This document shows positions 5,564-43,566 of a stretch of 64,000 nucleotides of DNA, one piece after another. The DNA comes from a virus (taxonomy: Duplodnaviria > Caudoviricetes), in IMG/VR virus record IMGVR_UViG_3300013383_000017, positions 1 through 64,000 of that record; one strand, given 5' to 3'. Under the pieces are notes generated by a model. It worked only from the letters and a program-made list of their open reading frames with translations, ran no database searches and was not told the DNA's origin. A program made the translations under genes and the position numbers. Position 1 is the first letter of the stretch; every line of letters starts with the position of its first letter.

Positions 5564-6232
5564 CTATGCAAGTGTCCAACCCTTTGCAGTGGCGGCGGTC
5601 TTCTGCGCTTCCGTCACCTTTGCAAGATTGGTTTCACCAAGCGTTAGTGTCTTACCCGTTACCTCTTTGAGGTGTGAAAGTATATAATCTATGCTTTCTG
5701 CATCCAAAGGACAATCCGATAGAGTGAGGTCGCAACCAATGTTATCCACTCTCATATAAGATAGTTTTGTGCAATGGGTAAAAGCATTTGCCGCACTTGT
5801 AACCGCTCCAAAGTCTACTGAACCACTTATCGGAAACTGCGTTAGTGCTGTACAACCAAAGCACAAGTTCGTTATATTGGTTACCTTTGATGCGTTCAGT
5901 GATGGTACGGATGTAAGTGCTATGCAGTTGTAAAACATATTACTCATATTCGTTACCGCTTTGGTGTCTATGCTCTCTATGTCAATCAAGTCTTGACAAT
6001 CGTAAAACATAGCCGCACAAGTCGTAAGGGATGCAAAGACAAGTTTAGGAAAATGCGTTGCCGTACTTCCTTTGAATTTCGTTCCATCGGGTAAGGTAGT
6101 CCCCGTAGGGATTGCCTTAATCCTTGTGGCATAGTTTGCCAACACCTCGTCACAAGCCACGCCCTTGCTTGTTATTGCGCTCTTGATGCTTGCTTTTGAA
6201 GTCTTTATGCTTGTTATCTGTTCTTCTACCAT
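5564..6232 (-). CDS. BspA/DUF285-type leucine-rich-repeat protein (tail-associated)
   Basis: DTKAVTNMSNMFYNC-type repeats; AT.KGWTL C-terminus. Confidence 0.75.
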   Translation of the reverse strand: MVEEQITSIKTSKASIKSAITSKGVACDEVLANYATRIKAIPTGTTLPDGTKFKGSTATHFPKLVFASLTTCAAMFYDCQDLIDIESIDTKAVTNMSNMFYNCIALTSVPSLNASKVTNITNLCFGCTALTQFPISGSVDFGAVTSAANAFTHCTKLSYMRVDNIGCDLTLSDCPLDAESIDYILSHLKEVTGKTLTLGETNLAKVTEAQKTAATAKGWTLA

Positions 6233-6236
6233 AGCC

Positions 6237-7196
6237 CTATCCTATTATTTCGTCCAATTGCTCACTTACTGATTGTAGGCTCGTTGTGCCCTTTATCAAA
6301 GTCCCATCTGCCTGCACTTTGATGCAGATTGCATCTTCGTAGTTGTTAGTGTTCTTCACTAACTGACCAAACCACTCCGTACCAATCTTGTGCAGAGTAC
6401 CTGCATAGAGGTCGTTGTAGGTGCAGTGCATCACTTGTGCAGTAGGGATTTTCGATAAGTAGACTTCGAGTTGTGCCTTGTTCGACAAAGTGGTGTCAGT
6501 GAAAGGCACTGGCGTGTAAGAGTACTTGATTGCATCTAACATCTCCACAACCTCATTTGAGGTCTTTTCAAGGAAATAATTGTCTGCACTGAAAGTCACT
6601 TCTCCCGTTGAAGTGTTCACATTCATAGGATAGTGCTTGCTTTCGTTTATGTCCGTCACTATACCGCTCAAAAGAGTGCCCGTACCGATATTAAGAGTGC
6701 CAAAGTATTCGGCTTCGTTGTCGGTCAAGACAATAGGGATTGAGTAGCCATTTGTGGTTTTTATCCCTGCATCTGTTAGTATCTTTACAAAGGCTGTTAT
6801 TGCCGTTTTATTGGCGGCATTTTGACCCGTTGTAAGGGTTATAGGAGCAAAAGCATTGACTGCCTTTGCTTTTGTGTTCACCTCGTTGATTTTTTCATTC
6901 ACATCGGTGGTCTTTGCATACCCCAAAGCCTCAACCTTTCCCTTAATCCAAGTCCATAAAGAGGAAAGTGGGCGTCTGTGATATGTAGTGGTTTCTGTTC
7001 CCCCACTTGTATATTGTGAGATGAAATAGTCGGCATCCACGGGTGCTGCTATTCCCGTACTCAACTTGTTTATAAGCCCGTTCAATCCACTTTCCGTGTT
7101 GTTTACCTTGCCCGTTATCTCCGTTTGTAGGCTCGTTGAAAGTTTCTCCTTGCTAATGCTTTTATCTATTATCGCATCGGGATTTAATTTTGTCAT
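6237..7196 (-). CDS. Tail fibre / adhesin protein
   Basis: Thr/Gly-rich; located in the tail fibre module. Confidence 0.6.
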   Translation of the reverse strand: MTKLNPDAIIDKSISKEKLSTSLQTEITGKVNNTESGLNGLINKLSTGIAAPVDADYFISQYTSGGTETTTYHRRPLSSLWTWIKGKVEALGYAKTTDVNEKINEVNTKAKAVNAFAPITLTTGQNAANKTAITAFVKILTDAGIKTTNGYSIPIVLTDNEAEYFGTLNIGTGTLLSGIVTDINESKHYPMNVNTSTGEVTFSADNYFLEKTSNEVVEMLDAIKYSYTPVPFTDTTLSNKAQLEVYLSKIPTAQVMHCTYNDLYAGTLHKIGTEWFGQLVKNTNNYEDAICIKVQADGTLIKGTTSLQSVSEQLDEIIG

Positions 7197-7213
7197 CTTT
7201 CAGTCCTCCTTAA

Positions 7214-9082
7214 TTAATTGATTAAATCTGCTTCGCAGTATTGTTTAATTTCTCCATTGCTGTTCTTTGCTATTATCCACTCATAGTCAGCACCAAGCGC
7301 AATACTACTACAATCTATCGTGAGTTTCTTCGAGATGTCTGTACCCTTTATACCCGACTTGATTGTTAGGTTCTGCAAAGGTGCACTCGATGATGGTTTC
7401 GTTGCTTGCTCATTAAACAAAAGTTGTACATATCGCACTCCATTGTCCACATGTATATATTGGATGTTATCGAATTGAGCATCCACGATTGTTCCGTTTC
7501 CAAAGGAATTGGAGAAGCAGTTGTTTCCAAAGGAATTGGAGCCGCAGGAGTTTCCAAAGGAATTGGAGAAGCATTCGTTTCCAAAGGAATTGGAGCCGCA
7601 GGAGTTTCCAAAGGAATTGTAGAAGCAGTTGTTTCCAAAGGAATTGGAGCCGCAGGAGTTTCCAAAGGAATTAGAGAAGCAGGAGTTTCCAAAGGAATTG
7701 GAGCTGCAGAAGTTTCCAAAGGAATTAGAGAAGCAGGAGTTTCCAAAGGAATTGGAGAAGCAGTTGTTTCCAAAGGAATTTTTGTAGCAGTTGTTTCCAA
7801 AGGAATTTTTGTAGCAGTCGTTTCCAAAGGAATTGGAGGAGCAGCCTTTTCCAAAGGAATTGTAGTCGCAGTCGTTTCCAAAGGAATTGGAGCTGCAGAA
7901 GTTTCCAAAGGAATTAGAGAAGCAGTCGTTTCCAAAGGAATTGGAGAAGCAGTTGTTTCCAAAGGAATTTTTGTAGCAGTTGTTTCCAAAGGAATTGTAG
8001 AAGCAGTCGTTTCCAAAGGAATTGGAGGAGCAGCCTTTTCCAAAGGAATTGGAGTCGCAGTCGTTTCCAAAGGAATTGGAGCGGCAGTCGTTTCCAAAGG
8101 AATTTTTGTAGCAGGAGTTTCCAAAGGAATTGTTGTAGCATTCGTTTCCAAAGGAATTGTTGTAGCAGGAGTTTCCAAAGGAATTGGAGAAGCATTTTCT
8201 TCCGAAACCCATATCATGGCTGTTTATGCCTATTTTGTTACCATATACTTGGTAATTTGATGCTAAGTAATCTTCCGAAAAAAATGGAATAAAAAATATA
8301 AAATTCAAGGATAACCTACTTATTATATCTTCATCATCTTTTATGAAAGTTTCAAAATTTTCCTTTATGATATTATTGTTAGGAATAGTGGTATATATAT
8401 CATCATCTCCTTTCAATCCTATAACTGATGCATCGTAAGATGTTTCTTGTCCATCTACTAACGAAAAAGTATATGCATAAATGAATGAAGTTGTCTTTTT
8501 CATATTATTCATGTTTGCCGATAGGTGATAAGGCACATCCATCTCATTATCGTAGTAATCTTGCATTTTTTCCCATAAGGGGTCAGTTTCATCTACTGCA
8601 TATATTTTATATTGTATGTTCTTGAAGTCGTAGAAACACTCGTTGTCCCATTCATCTTTCATCCACCAAACAACACCCTTTCCGTTGGTTGTATCTGCCC
8701 AAGCAAAGCGGTTTGTGTCGTTGTCCAAGCAGTATTTCAATTCCCAAGCACTCAACTTGCATCCACTGAAATAGGTGTCCCCTTTGTGTTGTATCGCTTT
8801 GGCATTCTCGTTGAGTACATTCACATCGTCTGCCTTGACAATCACATCAAAGGCGTGCCCTGCACTCCGTGTGTCTGTCTGTACACTTGTAGTCACAAAG
8901 TCAGTTATTCGATACCTCCTGCCTGCAACAAGTTTGCTCCCATCCCTCAACGCTTTGAGGTCGGCATAGGTGATGCTTACCATTGGATTGAGAGCATTCT
9001 GCACTGCCGCTATTTGCTCCTTAACCCAAGTCTTTATTTTCTTTGAAAAGGTCGTTAAACCCGAATTATTTAGATATCCCAT
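7214..9082 (-). CDS. Tail fibre / receptor-binding protein with 9-aa beta-helix repeats
   Basis: 26 NxCxxNSFG repeats; N-terminal ITYADL..L..GRRYRITDF domain typical of Bacteroidota phage fibres. Confidence 0.75.
   Translation of the reverse strand: MGYLNNSGLTTFSKKIKTWVKEQIAAVQNALNPMVSITYADLKALRDGSKLVAGRRYRITDFVTTSVQTDTRSAGHAFDVIVKADDVNVLNENAKAIQHKGDTYFSGCKLSAWELKYCLDNDTNRFAWADTTNGKGVVWWMKDEWDNECFYDFKNIQYKIYAVDETDPLWEKMQDYYDNEMDVPYHLSANMNNMKKTTSFIYAYTFSLVDGQETSYDASVIGLKGDDDIYTTIPNNNIIKENFETFIKDDEDIISRLSLNFIFFIPFFSEDYLASNYQVYGNKIGINSHDMGFGRKCFSNSFGNSCYNNSFGNECYNNSFGNSCYKNSFGNDCRSNSFGNDCDSNSFGKGCSSNSFGNDCFYNSFGNNCYKNSFGNNCFSNSFGNDCFSNSFGNFCSSNSFGNDCDYNSFGKGCSSNSFGNDCYKNSFGNNCYKNSFGNNCFSNSFGNSCFSNSFGNFCSSNSFGNSCFSNSFGNSCGSNSFGNNCFYNSFGNSCGSNSFGNECFSNSFGNSCGSNSFGNNCFSNSFGNGTIVDAQFDNIQYIHVDNGVRYVQLLFNEQATKPSSSAPLQNLTIKSGIKGTDISKKLTIDCSSIALGADYEWIIAKNSNGEIKQYCEADLIN
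7497..8198. repeat. 26 x 27-bp coding tandem repeat
   Basis: Invariant core TTTCCAAAGGAATT every 27 bp from 7497 to 8172. Confidence 0.95.
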
Positions 9083-11563: not shown

Positions 11564-13729
11564 TTATTTAGGTGTGAAAATTAAATCAATTTCTAACATT
11601 TGAGTATCTAAATTCATTTCCACTTTATCTATCTGCCCATCTCCGATACCTGTATGAATTAACTTATACAAGTCAAAATCAAAGTAAGGGCAAGAGATGC
11701 TCTGCTTCATAGATTTTTTCACTCCGTTGCTCTTCTTTTCCTTGTCGTTCACTTCGATGTTCCACGCCGGCATATCATAGAGGTAGTAGGTTTGTAGGGC
11801 GTAAAAGGACAAAAACCCGTTTTGTAGGACAATATCGTCCGCGATGGTATAGTAAGCCACTTTCCACTTTCCCTCGCTTTCTACGGCACTTAAAAGGGCA
11901 AATCCGTCACTTTGCGCCGCACTCGGATTGAATAGCATATAATCAATATCCGAATTGAAGTCATCTATGGTGATGCTCTCCACATCTCCGCTTTTCACAT
12001 ACTTGCTCTTTATCTCTATCGGGTTGCCCTCAAAGTATGAAGTCGTATCGTCTACCCACTTGAATTCGTATCTTTCGGGTAGTTCGTCCTTGTCATAAGA
12101 TGCAGTGTTCACTCCGAAACTCCAAGCCTTTCCCGTTCTCGGATTGACAAGTTTTGTCAAATCAAGCCCAATTTGAGGGTTTGAAAAATATGCTCCGCCG
12201 TTCATAAAGTAAGATATATGCTCTATCCTCAATCGGTAGTTGTTGCCACTCACCTGCTCTAACCACCAATAGCATCTAAATGCATCTCGGAGCATATCGA
12301 GTATCTTCCTTAATGTAATCTTCGCTTTTTGCGCAGGCTGGCTATACTCTCCTGCCAAGATATTACTCTTTGGTGTCAAGAATAGACTGAACGCCTGCTG
12401 ACTTATTGGATTGTAAGTGTCGTACAAGAATTGGCTATACGCCTTTGTCCCTTTGAAGTCTACCGAATATCCGCTATCCTTTGTAATCTTACTCAATAAA
12501 GTATCTATCACCGACCACAACGGATATGCATCCTTAAATGTGTATTCTTTGCGAATTAATGGTTCGATAGTGCTTGTGTACATATCAAAACTGAACCAAT
12601 ATGAAAGCCTTGTCCAATAGGTCTGCGCAATAGGGTAGTAATCGGGCACACCAGTACTCCCTCCATGTGGCGGTTTAGTGTAATACAAATCGTCTTTATA
12701 GTACCACTCAGTAGGTTCGGAACTAAACTCGTTCCAAATGGTTATCACGTCAAAAGCATACGGAAATACCCTATGGAAATTCCTATTGTTGCTTACCATA
12801 TCTTCGGAAGACAAAGAAGATGAATTGTAAGTCGTACTCCCTATCTTGAAACTCTCTACATCACAAATAAGTCGCCCATAAAAAGCCATATCGTGGATGT
12901 AAAGAATTACATTACCCGTTGCACCAGTACCGCTGACGGGAAGTAAAGTTATATCTGCATCAAGTGGGATATCCCTATTCTGAAATATCGCCCTCCATAA
13001 TACTACCTTATCCGCTTTCCTTACTACCTCTATATACGAACCATAGGACGCTAGTCCTCCCTCTCTGCGCACTTGTATAGTATATGTGCTATCGGAGATG
13101 CTCCATTCAGTTTCACTGCTCGGCTTATCTCCCCATATAGCATTGGGTAACTTTGGGGTCATATCCCCCGAAATCTCCACAATTCGGGCGTTCAATATCT
13201 TTGCAAAGTGGTACTTGTCCGTCAAGTCGCTATCGCTTTCTATCGTTTCACAATCCTGCTCCCAAGTCATCCCTTGAAAGAAACACGATACTTTATCCTC
13301 GCCCATAGCATAGATTTGTATCATACTGCGCTTGTCGAGCGATACGGCCTGCTTGCGTGGTAGTATCTTAATCAAGTCATATTCCTTTTCAACCCCATCA
13401 AGCACCGCACTATATGCATCCTTTGTTTCAAGATTGAGGGTGAAAAGCCTATCGTCTATATTGAACTCGCAATCCGTCTTGTAAAAAGTACCTGTCCAAT
13501 ATAACCCGTAATCCGAATAGATTATAAGATTGAACTTTGTTTCTATATCTGCGTTATACACAAAGTCGAAGTCTTCCCCTACAAAAGTAAACTCCCCCGA
13601 AAGACTTTGACGGAAATACTGCTCATTCGCATCGTGCGACCATTTCATTGTGCAATTATTCCCGAATATAGGATGCGCCGTTATTCGTATTTTTGGAGTT
13701 TGTAAATAAAATCCGTATTTTGGTTTCAT
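11564..13729 (-). CDS. Tail tip / baseplate hub protein
   Basis: 721 aa, immediately downstream of the tape measure gene. Confidence 0.65.
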   Translation of the reverse strand: MKPKYGFYLQTPKIRITAHPIFGNNCTMKWSHDANEQYFRQSLSGEFTFVGEDFDFVYNADIETKFNLIIYSDYGLYWTGTFYKTDCEFNIDDRLFTLNLETKDAYSAVLDGVEKEYDLIKILPRKQAVSLDKRSMIQIYAMGEDKVSCFFQGMTWEQDCETIESDSDLTDKYHFAKILNARIVEISGDMTPKLPNAIWGDKPSSETEWSISDSTYTIQVRREGGLASYGSYIEVVRKADKVVLWRAIFQNRDIPLDADITLLPVSGTGATGNVILYIHDMAFYGRLICDVESFKIGSTTYNSSSLSSEDMVSNNRNFHRVFPYAFDVITIWNEFSSEPTEWYYKDDLYYTKPPHGGSTGVPDYYPIAQTYWTRLSYWFSFDMYTSTIEPLIRKEYTFKDAYPLWSVIDTLLSKITKDSGYSVDFKGTKAYSQFLYDTYNPISQQAFSLFLTPKSNILAGEYSQPAQKAKITLRKILDMLRDAFRCYWWLEQVSGNNYRLRIEHISYFMNGGAYFSNPQIGLDLTKLVNPRTGKAWSFGVNTASYDKDELPERYEFKWVDDTTSYFEGNPIEIKSKYVKSGDVESITIDDFNSDIDYMLFNPSAAQSDGFALLSAVESEGKWKVAYYTIADDIVLQNGFLSFYALQTYYLYDMPAWNIEVNDKEKKSNGVKKSMKQSISCPYFDFDLYKLIHTGIGDGQIDKVEMNLDTQMLEIDLIFTPK

Positions 13730-13732
13730 AGC

Positions 13733-16699
13733 CTAACTTATTATTTTCTTTGTGTTCTTGTAATATATTATCGTCTTTCCGCCCGATGTAAGCACTTTCT
13801 GCCCACCCTGCTCTACTAACTCGCTTACACCCTTTTCGAGTTTACGCAAGTCTGCTCCTTGTGGCACAATATCGCTACCCACAAAAGCATTGCCGTACAA
13901 ATTCTCGAAAGTGCCGTGATTTAACGAAGAAATGATGTCGGATACCTTACTAACGCCGTACTTGCGTACATTGCGCTTGTTGATTACTCCAATCATCTCT
14001 CCTCTTTCAACCCTGCGTCTTGTCCCATCGGGTTTTACTCCGAAATCTATGTCGTGCCCACTTGCGTGCGAACCACCATAATCCAAGTACTCACTCATAC
14101 CCTCTCCGTAACTCTCGCTTTGCATCTTTGTGAGTTGTACCGCCTTTATCTTTGCTGCTGCAAATGAACCCCACATAGCCGCCGTTGCCGCTACTGCTAA
14201 TGGAATACCCAATACTCCTTTCGTGCCCTCTGCTTTCCATATACTCGCCGTTGCGGTTACAAGACTGCTTATCTGTTGTGCAGTGTCTGCGGCTTCCTGC
14301 ACCTTTTGTAACTCTAATACATCTTGTGCGGCTTTCTTTGCAATCTTATGCTTCTCCTCGTACTCCTTTCGTGCATATTCCACATTGTTAGCGTATCCGT
14401 TTGCCCTTGCTTCGAGTTCATAGTCAAGTGCACTCTTTGCTGCATCCTGCTCGGCTTGTGCCGCTTCTTCCGCTATTTCTGCCATCTTTATTCGCGTTTC
14501 AATCCATTCGTTCATATACTTGAACGACTGATTAAAGTACCTCTCCATAGTGCGCCACTTTCGGTCTGCCGTTTTATCTTCTTCGTCCGTTGGGTCGGTC
14601 GCATTGGTAGACTTACTCCTCAACGCATTCAACCTCTCCATTATCTTGTTGTACTCGTCAATCGTCAGCGTACCGCTTTCAGTAAGCAATCGGAGGTAAT
14701 CCTCCCAATACTGAATGTCGGATGCAAGTAACTTGTTGTTAGTTTCCTGCTTAATGGTTTCAATATCCTCACCTGCCTTTCTGCGCTCTTCCATCTCGGC
14801 ATAGATAGCACTATTCCTAACGGCTTTCTCCTGCTCTACCTGCTTCTTAATTAAAGACACATCCTCCTCTGCAATATATTCATCTTCAACCGCTACGGGT
14901 TCGGTTTTAAGTAACTCTTCGCGCTCGGCCTTGTATTTAGATGTAGTATTGCCCATTATTGCTTCTATATAGGCTAACTGCGTTTCTATTTGCTTCTTAT
15001 CTTTCGCATCGGCGGTCTTCTGCTTCTCCAAGAGTTCGGCGCGAATGTCCTCGTATTGCTTCATCTCCTTTTTGTAGGATAGTTGCAACTGCGCAAGTTG
15101 TTTGGTTAGCCCGTCTTCCATAGCATCGATAACGGACTGCCACATATCGAAGTAATAGTCCTTTATTTCATCCTTTCCGTTTCCACTGCCACTGCCACTG
15201 CCATTGCCTAATAAGCCTGTGATATCAATCAATTTAAGTAATTCGTCCCGCTGTGTGATAAGAGTTTCTATATCCGATATATTTTTTTGGATAGCTTTAA
15301 ATGTCGTAACATCTTCGCGTCCTTTGCGTGTTGGTTTACTTGTTGATATAGCATATTTAATTTTTTCTGGTTGGTCTTTTAGATTTTCATAAATTTCACC
15401 CCATGTGCTACCATAAAAATACCAACCAAAATAATTTGGGCTTGTCTTAAAAATTTGTCTATTCTGCTCTTCTTTCTCAACAATCTTTGCTTCCGTTTCC
15501 TCTATCTTTTTAAGATATGCCTTTGCTCGTGCTCGTTTGACGATACTATCGGTAAGGAGGTCATAATTTGCCTTCGCATCTCCAAGTAGTATTTTTTCTT
15601 TTTCGATATTCGCAAAATATGATGGATATAGACTTTGCAACGCTATTGCTGCGTTCAATCTATCGTTATATACGCGATTTATATCCGTTGCGATTTCATA
15701 CAATGCCCTTAATTTCGCTGTTTCTTGTGCGGCGGCTTGTGCGGCACTAACATCAGCCTTTGCCAACTCTTCCTCCAAGTCGATAGTTTTTGTCAGTATC
15801 TCGTTGTACTTCTCCTGCTCTTTGCTCTTTTTGGAAAGATGGCGGAGCACAAAAGGTAGAACCGTCAAAAGCAGCACTAAACCCGATTGCCAAGAAAAGA
15901 TAGACTTGGTAAGCAACTTTGTTACAGAAAGGTTCTTATTCTTTGCCATTTCTGCTTTGAGTGCGGCGGCTTTCTCTGCTTCTCCTGCGGCTTCTGCGGC
16001 TGCAATTTGCTTCAATGTTTCAACTCTTAAAGACTTCACATTTCCGATGTAATCCATAAGAATAGGGATGTTGTTCGATATGGCTATCGCAAAGGTCGCT
16101 GGGCTATTGGCAAGTGCTGGCAACTCTCGGATTACCTGCGTTGTAGCGATATTCAATCCCGAAATGGCTTTTGAATAGTTACCTACCTGCAACTGATACT
16201 TACCCGTTGCTTGTTGCATCATATTCATCCTCTCATACATCTCTTTGAGTTGCTCGACCATTTTCTTTCCTGCATCGGTGTTTTCCCTTTCGGCTTGCGT
16301 CATATTGTTCACAAGTGTTTTGAGGGTGTTGTATTGGGCTTGCAAGCGGTCATACGACCCCTCTCTTGTGCGCTCTAACTCGGTAGAGAGTTGTAGTACC
16401 CTATTGCGCTCTCTATTGCTCTTGTTGAGGGCTTGTATTGCTTCGTCATAGAGGTCCACATCTACTTCAAGGCTTTTGTAAATCTCGCGAAGTTTGTCTA
16501 ATTGGTCTATTTGTGGTTTTACATTTGTTCCACTGCCTGCGGTCTTGATTTGCCCTCCAAGACTGGCAATCTCTTTCTTCATCTCCTCGATAGATGCCTG
16601 CGTCTGCGCTTGCAACTGCTTGATTTGGTTTATCCACGCATCAAAACCCTCTCGTACATCGGGGCTGACTATGTCACTATATTTTATTGGGTTTTCCAT
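13733..16699 (-). CDS. Tape measure protein
   Basis: 988 aa, coiled-coil and Ala-rich, QLQVGNY motif, hydrophobic segments. Confidence 0.85.
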   Translation of the reverse strand: MENPIKYSDIVSPDVREGFDAWINQIKQLQAQTQASIEEMKKEIASLGGQIKTAGSGTNVKPQIDQLDKLREIYKSLEVDVDLYDEAIQALNKSNRERNRVLQLSTELERTREGSYDRLQAQYNTLKTLVNNMTQAERENTDAGKKMVEQLKEMYERMNMMQQATGKYQLQVGNYSKAISGLNIATTQVIRELPALANSPATFAIAISNNIPILMDYIGNVKSLRVETLKQIAAAEAAGEAEKAAALKAEMAKNKNLSVTKLLTKSIFSWQSGLVLLLTVLPFVLRHLSKKSKEQEKYNEILTKTIDLEEELAKADVSAAQAAAQETAKLRALYEIATDINRVYNDRLNAAIALQSLYPSYFANIEKEKILLGDAKANYDLLTDSIVKRARAKAYLKKIEETEAKIVEKEEQNRQIFKTSPNYFGWYFYGSTWGEIYENLKDQPEKIKYAISTSKPTRKGREDVTTFKAIQKNISDIETLITQRDELLKLIDITGLLGNGSGSGSGNGKDEIKDYYFDMWQSVIDAMEDGLTKQLAQLQLSYKKEMKQYEDIRAELLEKQKTADAKDKKQIETQLAYIEAIMGNTTSKYKAEREELLKTEPVAVEDEYIAEEDVSLIKKQVEQEKAVRNSAIYAEMEERRKAGEDIETIKQETNNKLLASDIQYWEDYLRLLTESGTLTIDEYNKIMERLNALRSKSTNATDPTDEEDKTADRKWRTMERYFNQSFKYMNEWIETRIKMAEIAEEAAQAEQDAAKSALDYELEARANGYANNVEYARKEYEEKHKIAKKAAQDVLELQKVQEAADTAQQISSLVTATASIWKAEGTKGVLGIPLAVAATAAMWGSFAAAKIKAVQLTKMQSESYGEGMSEYLDYGGSHASGHDIDFGVKPDGTRRRVERGEMIGVINKRNVRKYGVSKVSDIISSLNHGTFENLYGNAFVGSDIVPQGADLRKLEKGVSELVEQGGQKVLTSGGKTIIYYKNTKKIIS

Positions 16700-35816: not shown

Positions 35817-36028
35817 ATCTCTTTTTCGTATGTCAGTCCTATCGTTGGGATGCTATCCTTTCGCATCCGCAGATACATCCTGCCCGTCAAAACAAATGCT
35901 ATCCTCTCTAACAGATTTCCTCGATAGCGAAGGGTAAATCCGTCTTTTTCTTTCCTTATGGGGACATTCCCACTCGTCCCCGTGCAATCGCTAAAATATA
36001 CTATTTTCATCTTCCAATTAATTTCCAA
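35813..36028 (-). CDS. Hypothetical protein
   Basis: Operon arrangement. Confidence 0.5.
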   Translation of the reverse strand: MEINWKMKIVYFSDCTGTSGNVPIRKEKDGFTLRYRGNLLERIAFVLTGRMYLRMRKDSIPTIGLTYEKEI

Positions 36029-36654
36029 TAATTATTTAATTCAATCCTAAATACCTCGCTCTTGTAGTATCCGCAACTCTCCCTTTCGGGACATCTCCCT
36101 CGATAGATGCAGTTCGGCACCATCATTGCTCCCATATCGGGGTCTTGCTCGGTTATTGCTTTCTTGACCAGCGTCCAAGCCTGCCGCGTTTCGGGACTTG
36201 CGCAACTACAAAGTCGCTTCCTGCTTATGTTTATAAGCGTTTGAGCGTTGACATAAAAGTCCTGCTCGTTGCGCTCTCCCTGCAACATAAAGTCCCTTGC
36301 CCTCCAATCCAAATACTGCTCTGCATCCGCTTTCAGTATCTGCATCACCTTTTCCGTCTGCTTCGCCACTGCCTTGTTCCTATCCTCTCTCTGCGAATGG
36401 ATGAACGGAAGTGTATGCTCGTGCCTTAACAAGTGCACACCTACCCACTGACGCAAATTTTTGAAACTTATCCGATACTCAACTAACTTTATTTGTGAGT
36501 GCTCCGCAAAAAGGGACATCCGCTTCCATTCGGCGGATGGCTCTTTCTTTATTGGCTCTTTCCCTGCCGTTCTTCTCGCGGCATTCAAAGCCCTATTCCA
36601 CGAGGTCTCCTGTATAACCTCTACTGACAACTGCTTTTCCATTGCCCTTGACAA
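36007..36654 (-). CDS. thyX: FAD-dependent thymidylate synthase
   Basis: AEHS, HLLRH....HSQR, NAQ.LI..SRKRLC..A..E and PNCIYRG.CPE motifs. Confidence 0.8.
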   Translation of the reverse strand: MSRAMEKQLSVEVIQETSWNRALNAARRTAGKEPIKKEPSAEWKRMSLFAEHSQIKLVEYRISFKNLRQWVGVHLLRHEHTLPFIHSQREDRNKAVAKQTEKVMQILKADAEQYLDWRARDFMLQGERNEQDFYVNAQTLINISRKRLCSCASPETRQAWTLVKKAITEQDPDMGAMMVPNCIYRGRCPERESCGYYKSEVFRIELNNYWKLIGR

Positions 36655-36781
36655 ATCTTTTTATAGGCTTCGGGTGCTGTTATCCAATCCCCCTTAAATT
36701 CCCTAAACTTCGCACATAAGTGCAAGTATCGGTTACCACCGCGCAGTCGCTTCCACTGCAAGTATTTGCACCCGTAACACC

Positions 36782-37222
36782 TCATTTCCTATGTGGTATT
36801 GTTACATCCATATCACCACGCCTAAAACGCGGAGCAATTATCCTTATATCTCCACCATTCTCTAACCAATCTATAATTTTCTGACCAACTCCAAAACCTA
36901 TCCCCATAGATGTTCCCGTCGATAGACAATCAAAAGCGACTTTCATCTTTTCTTGTAGGGTATTATCCTTGTAAAACCCAACCAATACGCTCACACTTTC
37001 ATCGCTATCATAGTCGAATATGCCGTTCTTAACACCAATGCAGAAAACATCATTTCCACTCCTGTAAAAAGCACTATATTCGGCATCTTGGTATAGATAT
37101 ATAAAATACTCCTCCGTGCCCTTTAACTCATCGGGTTCATGATAACTTGAAACCCAACCATTCTGCGCTACTGCTGTCATCCCGACCAACAAAGCGACCA
37201 TTATTGCCATTATCTTTTTCAT
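36782..37222 (-). CDS. Secreted protein (Sec signal peptide)
   Basis: MKKIMAIMVALLVGMTAVA|Q. Confidence 0.75.
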   Translation of the reverse strand: MKKIMAIMVALLVGMTAVAQNGWVSSYHEPDELKGTEEYFIYLYQDAEYSAFYRSGNDVFCIGVKNGIFDYDSDESVSVLVGFYKDNTLQEKMKVAFDCLSTGTSMGIGFGVGQKIIDWLENGGDIRIIAPRFRRGDMDVTIPHRK

Positions 37223-37236
37223 ATCTTTTTTTTTAA

Positions 37237-37353
37237 TCCGCTATGGTAGGACTTGAACCTACATCCCTCGCAAATGCGTGCCTGCTTAAAATTTAACTTC
37301 ACTTAAAATTCCCACGCACTCCAAGTGTTCATACCAATTATACCACATAGCGG
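37237..37353 (-). ncRNA. tRNA-like RNA with expanded anticodon arm
   Basis: Acceptor stem CCGCTAT/ATAGCGG, D-arm with TGG, T-arm GTAGG-TTCAAGT-CCTAC; ~60-nt insert in place of the anticodon arm. Confidence 0.7.
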
Positions 37354-37358
37354 ATATG

Positions 37359-37646
37359 TTATTTAATCATTCCACTATCGCATACAACTACATTCCCCAT
37401 TATTACATCCCATATCGGGATTACATTGTAATTCTGAGCAATCATCGTGGCGGTAGTATTGATTTCCGCGCCATTCAGTTTGCCCTCATCATCGATTACC
37501 ATCAAACGATTATTGTCGTTCAACGATAAAATATCTATTACACGGCATCCGATATGCTCGTATAACTCTTCCAAAGAAAAATCAGTGCCGTTCTTTGGAT
37601 TGATTTCTACCACTGCACCTGTGGTCTTGTATAAAAATGCTTTCAT
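37359..37646 (-). CDS. DUF3846-like protein
   Basis: LEEL...IG, MVIDDEGKL, N..AT and I.GNVV motifs. Confidence 0.7.
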   Translation of the reverse strand: MKAFLYKTTGAVVEINPKNGTDFSLEELYEHIGCRVIDILSLNDNNRLMVIDDEGKLNGAEINTTATMIAQNYNVIPIWDVIMGNVVVCDSGMIK

Positions 37647-37755
37647 TTTTTTTTATTAATATTTTAAAAAGGGCGTTGTGAGTATTCCAAGACTTATTCC
37701 CCACAAAGAGTTGTCCAAAATCACCTCTTGCACTCTCTTCCGACCGCCTTTTATG

Positions 37756-38034
37756 TTACCGGGTTTTGCGCCATGCGTGCCAATGCATGGCTCCATCCCT
37801 CGAAAAGTAAGTCTCCCTCTCCCAATTCATTCCTCCCTTTTCCGGAACGAATGCATCAACCTGCACCCTGCCTCTCTCTGCCCGGTCTGAACACCCGTTT
37901 TTCCGCATGCAGTCCCGGACAAACTGCATTGCAGTTTCGAGAGAGAAGTGGTCGAAGTCTCCCTCGAACCACCCCTCTCTAAAAAACATATTTCCTTGGG
38001 TAAAGAACATTACCCAAACCCTCATTGTATTCAT
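37756..38034 (-). CDS. Hypothetical protein (start MNTMR)
   Basis: First ORF after a long structured leader. Confidence 0.55.
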   Translation of the reverse strand: MNTMRVWVMFFTQGNMFFREGWFEGDFDHFSLETAMQFVRDCMRKNGCSDRAERGRVQVDAFVPEKGGMNWERETYFSRDGAMHWHAWRKTR

Positions 38035-38467
38035 ATTTCCTCCTTTTTTAATGGTTATTAAATTGCCGTCTTTCCGTGCTGCCAAATACACTAACTCTCT
38101 TCTCCACTTTGGTAATGCATCTCTCCCTTGTGGTGCAGCAAGTTTTTATTAAGAGTTCTTGCAACTCTTTATCTTTCTTAAAAATGTCTGTCTTTCCAGA
38201 CTGCCAAATGCACAAACCATCTTGTCCGCTCTGATAATGCATCTCTTTCTCACGGCGCAGCCCCTTGTCACCCTTCATGAGCACTGGGATAACTTTAAGG
38301 TTATCATTCTACCTTTTTTTAGATGGTGAGGTTTCCATCACACGACTATTTCAAGTCGTCTCCAAGATTACACATGCTATTGGGTATTTATAGCACCTTG
38401 ACCTCTCGGAGTATATTTTTCAGGATTTCAATCCGTCATTTTTCAGACTTCCGCGTTGTTTGTATTG

Positions 38468-38499
38468 CAAAGGTATAACGAATATTTGAATTATGCAAA
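38468..38499 (-). promoter_or_regulatory. Promoter TTTGCATAATTCAAA...TACCTTTG
   Basis: Same motif as the promoters at 3458, 30233 and 31218. Confidence 0.8.
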
Positions 38500-38504
38500 T
38501 ATTT

Positions 38505-38918
38505 TTAGAAAAAATTATACTCTTTTTTTAACTTTTTTATCGTGACATCATTCTTCTCCTTGATTTTCATACCCTTACGAGTTGGTGCGTGCTCCCATAA
38601 ATTATGACAACTTATACACAACATATTCGTATTTCGTGGGTCGTGTGCCATTTCGGGGTGCGCCCCCCTCGTTAAAATATGGCTAACATTAAATGCAGAC
38701 GGCCAATATAACGGCTTTCCACACTCCTCGCAGATATGCGGCTTGTGCTCTATTACCCATTTGTAAAACTTCGCATTGCCCTCCGCGTTATTCTTGCCAA
38801 AAAGCCGTTTCTGCACGCTTATCCGCAACTCGTGGCTCATTGGTAGTCTTTCGTCTATAAGTGGCTCATAGCCCCTCTTTTGGGCGTATAAATACTCCTC
38901 GTCAGTCGTTAATAGCAT
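38505..38918 (-). CDS. HNH / NinG-like nuclease
   Basis: CEECG, SHI, N..MLC.SCH motifs. Confidence 0.7.
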   Translation of the reverse strand: MLLTTDEEYLYAQKRGYEPLIDERLPMSHELRISVQKRLFGKNNAEGNAKFYKWVIEHKPHICEECGKPLYWPSAFNVSHILTRGAHPEMAHDPRNTNMLCISCHNLWEHAPTRKGMKIKEKNDVTIKKLKKEYNFF

Positions 38919-39327
38919 CGTTGATTATCGTATAATAATTTTCAGCCCCATATCTCTGTACCCAAGCAATCGCTTCAACCGCTTCCGCAGTGTCTAATTC
39001 TTCCCACTCCCTCACCCTTACTTTCCACTTCCCCTCCTCTCTTATCTCCTCGCAGAAGACAGGGCACTCCCTCCGTATCTTGTCGTATACTCCCTGCTCC
39101 GTCAAGTCCTCTCCGTTCTCGTACATTGCCCTCTGCATCTCCTGCAAGACATACCCGAAAAAATAGGCTTTCATCTTCTTGCTCGGCTCCTTGCTCTGTA
39201 TCTCCGCTCGCAGAATTATATTGCAGTTGGGATGCAGTTTGCAGAACTCCTCTAACTCTGCCCACCGCATCCCTAACTCTCCCTTACTGTCTATCTTGCC
39301 CCATAGGGTCTTCTTTCGCACTCTCAT
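38902..39327 (-). CDS. NinB-like recombination accessory protein
   Basis: S.KMKAYFFGYV motif; adjacent to the NinG-like gene. Confidence 0.5.
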   Translation of the reverse strand: MRVRKKTLWGKIDSKGELGMRWAELEEFCKLHPNCNIILRAEIQSKEPSKKMKAYFFGYVLQEMQRAMYENGEDLTEQGVYDKIRRECPVFCEEIREEGKWKVRVREWEELDTAEAVEAIAWVQRYGAENYYTIINDAIND

Positions 39328-41356: not shown

Positions 41357-41731
41357 TTATTCCTCCCATTCGACTTTAATTGGGACTATATAATCTAGAC
41401 CCACTAACATATAATTCGATGCAACTTCTTTTGTGGGGTATATCTCACTATCTGCAATGATGTATTTACCTTTTCTATCTCTATACATATTCACCCACCC
41501 CTCGTGCTTTTCGGGGGCGAAGAATAAATCTAAAGAACTACTCTCTTCAGCATAATATGCCCCATTTGGGTAATAACTCTGTATATATTCCTTTCCCCCA
41601 TTATCAATTAAAGCTATTACTGGAAGATAATTTTTTGCATCCGTGCAAATTATTCTTGCACTTTTACCATCTCTCGTCACGACTTTGCGTGACGGATTGG
41701 CTAAATACTCTTTTAAGTTAAATTGTTTCAT
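41357..41731 (-). CDS. Conserved Bacteroidota phage protein (VVTRDG..ARIICTD family)
   Basis: Recognisable N-terminal motif; last CpG-containing gene before the composition switch. Confidence 0.75.
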   Translation of the reverse strand: MKQFNLKEYLANPSRKVVTRDGKSARIICTDAKNYLPVIALIDNGGKEYIQSYYPNGAYYAEESSSLDLFFAPEKHEGWVNMYRDRKGKYIIADSEIYPTKEVASNYMLVGLDYIVPIKVEWEE

Positions 41732-43452: not shown

Positions 43453-43481
43453 TTTTTATTATTTTTATTGTTTATAATTAG

Positions 43482-43566
43482 TGCTCCCAGTGAGACTCGA
43501 ACTCACACGACCATTTCTGATCAAGGGATTTTAAGTCCCTCTTGGCTTCCATTTCAACATGAGAGC
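43482..43566 (-). tRNA. tRNA-Leu (anticodon TAA)
   Basis: GCTCTCA/TGGGAGC acceptor, AGGGA-CTTAAAA-TCCCT anticodon arm, long variable arm, GTTCGAGT T-loop. Confidence 0.9.

Follow-up and report, generated by a model that had tools for sequence, protein, structure and literature searches.

A small, apparently undescribed family of tRNA-like RNAs with a long hairpin at the anticodon-arm site in gut Bacteroidales phages

The stretch of viral DNA analysed here (the window, 64,000 nt) belongs to a 142-kb IMG/VR record made of two dissimilar parts. The first ~42 kb, with a GC content of ~43%, encode a terminase, a portal and a head protein of a siphovirus of the Bacteroides B40-8 kind (portal ~47-51% identical), while the rest, with ~28% GC, is crAss-like; the step in GC content lies near position 41,700. 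Three other contigs, of 32.9, 37.7 and 46.6 kb (L066, L004 and L067), carry an element identical to the one described below, so that the siphovirus part may exist on its own, and the 142-kb record may be an assembly chimera or a recombinant. The sole standard tRNA of the record, an ordinary type II tRNA-Leu(UAA), is encoded in the crAss-like part at 43481-43566 (-). Elsewhere in the window, at 11564-16699 (-), two ORFs of 988 and 721 aa share a reading frame, with only TAG, a GCT codon and ATG between them. They would merge into ~1,715 aa if TAG were a sense codon, an arrangement that could represent read-through or simple adjacency.

The element under study is a tRNA-like gene of 115 nt (37238-37352 (-); type W in the following) that occupies a 136-nt gap between two co-directional genes and has the same sense as both. 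The upstream gene encodes a DUF3846 protein (phrog_18340; 37359-37646 (-)), with 6 nt between the end of its stop codon and the RNA. The downstream gene (36782-37222 (-)), with its ATG 15 nt after the RNA, encodes a protein of 146 aa without any family match, the N-terminus of which looks like a signal peptide; the neighbouring proteins also lack an informative family. None of the ORFs of at least 50 aa overlaps the element, which shows no visible signals of its own and sits among co-directional early/accessory genes.

The Rfam tRNA model (RF00005) matches the element from end to end (model positions 1-71) with 35.3 bits, above the cut-off of 29 bits for this family, and with E-values of 5e-5 in the 3 kb searched and 6e-7 in the whole 141,886-bp record. 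At the site of the anticodon arm, the model expects 11 nt, and the element holds 53. No family of Rfam 15 other than tRNA covers it, and ARAGORN in its default mode makes no call at 37238-37352. The minimum free energy fold of type W reaches -33.8 kcal/mol (z = -2.7 against shuffles) and agrees with the architecture described next, and our own covariance model, R1, scores type W at 106 bits.

According to RF00005 and R1, the whole RNA extends from C1 to the discriminator G (37238-37352 (-)), and the CCA end is not encoded. The 5' strand of the acceptor stem, CGCUAUG (37346-37352 (-)), pairs with CAUAGCG at 37239-37245, which together with the discriminator G forms the 3' end of the RNA (37238-37245 (-)) and is backed by RF00005 and by covariation. 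The acceptor 5' strand is followed by U8-G9 and the D region GUAUAAUUGGUAUGAAC (37327-37345 (-)), which in the family alignment A2 is near-invariant in sequence and weak in its stem. Next comes the 5' strand of a long arm (37313-37325 (-)), composed of a constant basal part, CUUG, and a variable helix, GAGUGCGUG; it pairs with the 3' strand at 37267-37280 (-), which reads CACGCAUUU, a bulged G (37271) and CGAG. The fold, RNAalifold and covariation all support this arm, which comprises 9 bp of GAGUGCGUG/CACGCAUUU and, across the single bulged G, 4 bp of CUUG/CGAG located where a tRNA has its anticodon stem, giving 13 bp. Its strands enclose an A/U-rich loop of 32 nt, GGAAUUUUAAGUGAAGUUAAAUUUUAAGCAGG (37281-37312 (-)), which includes a conserved motif of 16 nt, GUGAAGUUAAAUUUUA (37287-37302 (-)). 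The variable loop GGAU and the T arm GUAGG-UUCAAGU-CCUAC (37246-37266 (-)), also recognised by RF00005, complete the molecule.

A reading of this DNA made from its letters alone (the sequence-only reading) had described a tRNA scaffold with intact acceptor, D and T arms, in which the anticodon arm is replaced by a long stem and a 32-nt loop. The scaffold itself is confirmed, both by the Rfam score and by the recurrence of the same architecture in relatives with compensatory changes. As for the arms, the description is right for the acceptor and the T arm and fails for the D arm, of which only 2-3 of the 4 canonical pairs form. As for the replacement, the loop is as described, and the stem is longer, with its 13 bp and bulged G. 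In the Rfam alignment, the D-region bases U8, A14, G18 and G19 keep the tRNA register, although the canonical D stem is paired in just 54% of the family cells and RNAalifold prefers a different small hairpin in this region. Since the D region never varies, there is no covariation for or against the D stem, and since the canonical stem is poor, the tRNA-like elbow may not form.

The D-arm sequence is the same as that of bacterial tRNA-Gly(UCC), tRNA-Pro(CGG) and tRNA-Trp(CCA), and the pair C1-G72, invariant in the family, is shared with the retrieved tRNA-Pro sequences. The discriminator is G, C or A depending on the type, and pairs 2-71 to 7-66 vary freely, so no single amino-acid identity set is conserved. 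The 3-70 pair is either C-G or U-A, without any G3-U70. Positions -1 and 73 can pair in 6 of the 7 sequences (G:C in most T1, C:G in W and T2), and the acceptor stem may therefore be 8 bp long; the G-1:C73 of T1 recalls bacterial tRNA-His, which we treat as a lead only. A separate observation concerns the bacterial tRNA-Gly(UCC), which is identical in seven bins with H07xxx names (L110, L115, L116, L117, L123, L127 and L128) labelled as Bacteroidaceae, Segatella, Phocaeicola, Selenomonadaceae or "bacterium". An eighth bin (L095, with a Coriobacteriaceae label) holds the same tRNA with one flank difference, and the remaining tRNAs of the "Phocaeicola" bin look GC-rich. The H07xxx bins may share contaminating or mis-binned contigs.

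The family to which the element belongs consists of seven distinct sequences of three types (W, T1 and T2), distributed over about ten phage contigs. Type W is represented by the present copy and three identical ones, on four independent contigs in all, type T1 by five variants, and type T2 by one sequence, with a shorter arm and a variant loop motif. Relatives G001 and G002, whose portals are 79% identical to that of the W phage, carry tRNA-model matches of 111 nt. A single tandem pair, formed by T1 (111 nt) and then T2 (102 nt), 9 nt apart, is present, in G002 (L024 1389-1613 (-), corresponding to IMGVR_UViG_3300029718_000012 7260-7481). The metagenome copies were recovered with a degenerate pattern for the shared D-arm core. 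All members have in common UGGUAUAAU(U)GGUAU, CUUGG, GC(G/A)AG(A/G)GAUG and the T loop, and the types are set apart by their acceptor and T stems and by the upper helix of the arm. A constant scaffold bearing a variable loop, as had been predicted, is consequently not what the family exhibits: the scaffold core and the 16-nt loop motif are constant, and variation is found in the helix of the arm and in the stems of the acceptor and the T arm.

Exact-pattern scans of viral contigs (with the D arm, the 3' core and the loop motif) returned only the contigs already found. No family member was detected in the GTDB species genomes, in 50,697 deposited phage genomes, or in five cultured relatives and five more distant uncultured ones. 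The same was true, at E <= 1e-8, of 151 genomes from one bacterial family, the one that includes a genome labelled Phocaeicola massiliensis, a bin whose label looks doubtful. Full-text literature searches found no description of the family, which is small, apparently undescribed, and carried by gut Bacteroidales phages. Other tRNA-model matches were seen on unrelated phage contigs (L075 11637-11762 (-), L085 3808-3932 (+), L092 12396-12551 (+) and L074 4146-4217 (-)), for which Rfam names tRNA alone. This set shows inserts of 50-85 nt just 5' of the anticodon, two of them starting with GCAGAGG, and includes one 68-nt tRNA-like gene in which the anticodon arm is only CUUG-AGGG-CAAG.

The proposed structure (acceptor stem, long arm and T arm) was scored on alignment A2, which contains the seven sequences. 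In total, 92% of the cells are paired and ten pairs have changed on both sides, figures to be read as thin statistics since only three lineages and seven distinct sequences contribute to them. None of 500 shuffles reaches the observed value, and the structure slid by 1-3 columns pairs 35-47%. In the acceptor stem, 98% of the cells are paired and 4 of the 7 pairs exhibit double compensatory changes. The long-arm helix is 100% paired across the family, with 4 covarying pairs; the upper part of W is GAGUGCGUG/CACGCAUUU, while T1 has GGUAUC/GAUACU and T2 has GAAG/UUUC. The 5-bp T stem is likewise 100% paired, with 2 covarying pairs, and encloses the loops UUCAAGU, UUCAAAU or UUCGAGU; within T1, a double change from U-A to G-C keeps its pairing. 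RNAalifold recovers the same helices unprompted. The recurrent G-U pairs of the arm would be A-C on the opposite strand, which indicates that the structure belongs to the gene-sense transcript. Moreover, among the T1 variants the element is 92-99% identical, compared with 70-93% for the flanks (300 nt upstream and 200 nt downstream). The alignments demonstrate an element that is more conserved than the neighbouring coding DNA, with helices that are evidently under constraint.

Conservation extends to the large loop. The motif GUGAAGUUAAAUUUUA is identical in W and in the T1 copy of contig L064, even though the arm helices below it are unrelated in sequence, and T2 has CAGGUUUAAUUGUA at the positions aligned to it. 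Substitutions among T1 variants fall mostly in this loop, sparing a core. Pairing inside the loop is weak and not common to the types. The repeat of AAUUUUAAG reported earlier for the loop of type W is indeed there, the second copy being specific to W and the relatives having one. The loop also holds the heptads U-UAA-A and U-UUU-A, like the anticodon loops of tRNA-Leu(UAA) and tRNA-Lys(UUU), a likeness to U-rich anticodon loops that may be due to chance in an A/U-rich sequence. The loop (AAUU(U/G)UA) might form a pseudoknot with the D region (UAUAAUU), a candidate paired in 86% of the cells, with 6 of its 7 pairs never varying.

It had also been suggested that the loop might act as an antisense guide. 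The target search gave no support to this idea: neither the motif nor its complement is enriched across the 64,000-nt window (at or below the shuffle expectation), the motif has no conserved match in three bacterial genomes, and no antisense target was found in either. It is not repeated outside the elements in any of the loci compared. Three further candidates were discarded. An anticodon-like hairpin at the tip (7-nt loop GUUAAAU) has 3-5 weak pairs, suffers an uncompensated U-to-C change and is absent in T2. A Bacteroides-type promoter in the insert (the TAnnTTTG-like TAAATTTT) lacks, on visual inspection, a -33 element at the appropriate distance. Finally, an insert derived from a repeated or mobile element is at odds with the lack of further copies in the 142-kb record.

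The gene order around the element is informative about its mobility. Contig L064 presents an HNH gene, three small genes, T1, a 54-aa ORF and DUF3846, while the W phage presents an HNH gene, small genes, DUF3846 and W, so the element keeps to the same accessory region, on the opposite side of DUF3846. A constant protein partner was sought and rejected: DUF3846 is near the element in the W phage, in L064 and in G002, G001 and L069 have no DUF3846 close by, and the 54-aa ORF has no homologue in the W phage. Contig L069, of 96.6 kb and from a metagenome, is crAss-like, is related to the corresponding part of the present record, and has 19 ordinary tRNAs in an array (5770-8795 (-)). About 3 kb from this array, on the opposite strand, it encodes T1 together with the 54-aa ORF (11935-12230 (+)). 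As this module is 92% identical to the siphovirus copy of L064 and lies within unrelated flanks, it has evidently moved between phage types, here the siphovirus lineage and a crAss-like phage.

A canonical anticodon arm, with a 5-bp stem and a 7-nt loop holding U33 and a purine at position 37, is not present in this RNA. Because a long hairpin takes its place, the RNA cannot read codons. The sequence-only reading was therefore correct in that the element cannot decode in the normal way, given that 53 nt replace 11 and that the models proposed by ARAGORN differ by type and break across the family. It was equally correct in discarding a group I intron, since the extra sequence amounts to ~30-44 nt, compared with the ~200 nt or more of a group I intron with its core, and a search of 36000-39000 against Rfam with E up to 10 brought up no intron family. 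ARAGORN, which had been put forward as a check, is silent by default and, when introns are allowed, produces type-dependent and conflicting models. For W it proposes Leu(UAA), with an intron of 22 nt and an extra arm of 23 nt; for T1, Ile(GAU) or Thr(GGU), the intron of 41 nt following position 32; and for T2, Thr(UGU), with an intron of 21 nt. A role in stop-codon recoding, as a suppressor tRNA, was also rejected, the coding density under code 11 being normal.

These models raise the alternative of a true tRNA gene with a short intron of a kind undescribed in bacteria or phages, which would decode after the removal of ~41 nt (as Ile GAU or Thr GGU in T1). The T1 reading UCGCU-U/41 nt/UGAUAC-UGCGA does yield a 7-nt loop in which both U33 and A37 are present, the putative anticodon loop can pair with the beginning (5') of the insert, as in anticodon-intron helices, and the phage tRNA-like genes of unrelated contigs mentioned above hold inserts of 50-85 nt at about the same position. 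Nevertheless, the putative anticodon stem is paired in 71% of the cells, all departures are breaks, and it fails in W and T2, the W copy needing a different and strained ARAGORN model. The substitutions that break this stem are neutral or improving in the long-arm model. Similarly, near-identical T1 genes would differ in their anticodon, GAU versus GGU, with the body otherwise the same, a change that the long-arm model accommodates without harm, as U-A to U-G. The most conserved part of the gene would, in addition, fall inside the intron. Enumerating by hand the ways of splitting the T1 insert on the CUUG/CGAG stem gave none that retains a 7-nt loop having both U33 and a purine at position 37. 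The length of the insert is insufficient for a group I intron, and no Rfam intron family matches it. In the folds and the consensus, the helix is uninterrupted apart from one bulge of 1 nt, unlike a bulge-helix-bulge motif with its two 3-nt bulges 4 bp apart; moreover, the splicing endonuclease is not known from bacteria. We regard the intron as highly unlikely and take the family as a whole to be non-decoding, on the grounds that the putative anticodon stem breaks, T1 offers no valid split on the CUUG/CGAG stem, and neither a group I intron nor a bulge-helix-bulge is present.

The explanation that we prefer, with roughly even chances of being right, is that the element encodes a tRNA mimic of Bacteroidales phages, maintained by selection and unable to decode, which is cut from an operon transcript and presents a conserved loop. 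The RNA would be transcribed within an early polycistronic operon, cut at its 5' end by RNase P and at its 3' end by RNase Z or exonucleases, and supplied with CCA after processing, none being encoded. The mimic would owe its stability to the tRNA-like acceptor/T-arm half and the elbow, and its long arm would display the A/U-rich loop to a partner off the ribosome. This explanation has to accommodate a poor canonical D stem and the fact that no protein gene is constantly adjacent. A very different origin, a decaying pseudo-tRNA with a random insertion kept by chance, would account for the unusable anticodon loop, the weak D stem and the type-dependent discriminator. However, double changes keep the helices in three lineages, the element is more conserved than the flanking coding DNA, it is identical in four independent contigs, and it has undergone tandem duplication and transfer between phage types. 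The compensatory changes and the conservation above that of the flanking coding DNA largely refute decay, the outcome against which the sequence-only reading had set its proposal, and leave it scarcely credible. Alternatively, the element might be a processing signal only, a tRNA-shaped punctuation mark at which RNase P and RNase Z cut the early transcript, the excised RNA having no task. Its tight fit between co-directional ORFs (6 and 15 nt), the acceptor/T half recognised by both enzymes being the best-kept structure, and the differences in neighbouring genes among phages are all in keeping with this proposal. It leaves unexplained, by contrast, the conserved 16-nt loop motif, the compensatory upkeep of a long arm dispensable to RNase P and RNase Z, the tandem T1-T2 pair, and the transfer into a phage whose 19 tRNAs offer ready cut sites. 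A processing role for RNase P and RNase Z is thus plausible, as it fits the operon position although not the conserved loop, but a signal that does nothing else is unlikely.

Regarding what the tRNA mimic might do, we favour, with low confidence and as speculation, a decoy or sponge for a factor that binds anticodon loops. This preference is based on the participation of phage tRNAs against tRNA-cleaving defences and on the resemblance of the loop heptads to anticodon loops. The partner could be a protein, of the host or of the phage, that acts on the anticodon loops of tRNAs, for instance a defence nuclease that cleaves tRNAs or an enzyme that modifies them, and the RNA would serve in a phage-host conflict over tRNAs. 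A multi-turnover nuclease, on the other hand, is not easily titrated. A still more specific version postulates a natural "tRNA scaffold", a mobile accessory RNA in which the tRNA body serves only for processing and stability and the loop imitates tRNA-Leu(UAA) or tRNA-Lys(UUU) to neutralise a Bacteroidales tRNA-directed nuclease or another anticodon-loop binder; stated in these full terms, it is quite unlikely.

Several known RNAs offer points of comparison with the mimic. Phage T4 encodes species 1 (rnaC) and species 2 (rnaD), non-decoding RNAs of ~120-140 nt with tRNA-like ends that pass through the tRNA-processing machinery and have no known function. Compared by description only, they resemble the present element in being phage-encoded, of similar size, with tRNA-like ends and non-decoding. 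They differ in that rnaC and rnaD lie in a tRNA gene cluster, whereas the present element stands alone among small accessory genes, and in that its insert is specifically a long helix replacing the anticodon arm. The tRNA-like domain of tmRNA shares the acceptor and T arms, a degenerate D region and a long helix at the anticodon-arm site, but the G3-U70 pair, the tag reading frame and the pseudoknots of tmRNA are missing here. ARAGORN reports no tmRNA, and the sole Rfam tmRNA match in the region has 7.2 bits and lies elsewhere (38662-38746 (+)). Y RNAs of the YrlA type contain a permuted tRNA-like module that ends in a Ro-binding stem rather than in an acceptor stem. In contrast, the covarying terminal helix of the present element is the acceptor stem, and the Rfam matches include no Y RNA family.

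To our knowledge, all the established cases of phage tRNA genes in conflict with tRNA-cleaving defences are working tRNAs. Phage tRNAs have been found to take part against such defences (PMC10264068), and a tRNA-Lys variant of phage T5 acts against PARIS (PMC11464382). These defence-escaping tRNAs are, like the present RNA, tRNA-shaped accessory genes, and their anticodon-loop sequence is variable and selected (PMC10264068, PMC11464382). Nevertheless, they replace the host tRNAs that have been cleaved, whereas the present RNA could at most bind or distract. A comparable design exists in engineered form: the tRNA-scaffold chimeras of Ponchon and Dardel replace the anticodon stem-loop with a structured RNA, and the tRNA body is processed and protects it from degradation (PMC3401473). 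Those chimeras are artificial, and the element described here would be a candidate natural counterpart.

Standard annotation misses genes of this kind, given that ARAGORN is silent in its default mode and Rfam labels the element as a plain tRNA. As the family is small and restricted to uncultured phages, its present value is that of a defined, testable candidate. Its significance lies in the fact that the element is under selection and has crossed between phages that are not related to each other and whose hosts are a dominant group of gut bacteria. A conserved, non-decoding, tRNA-shaped RNA points to another RNA-only kind of accessory gene, and, if its loop did neutralise a nuclease, it would represent an RNA-only anti-defence gene common to siphoviruses and crAss-like phages.
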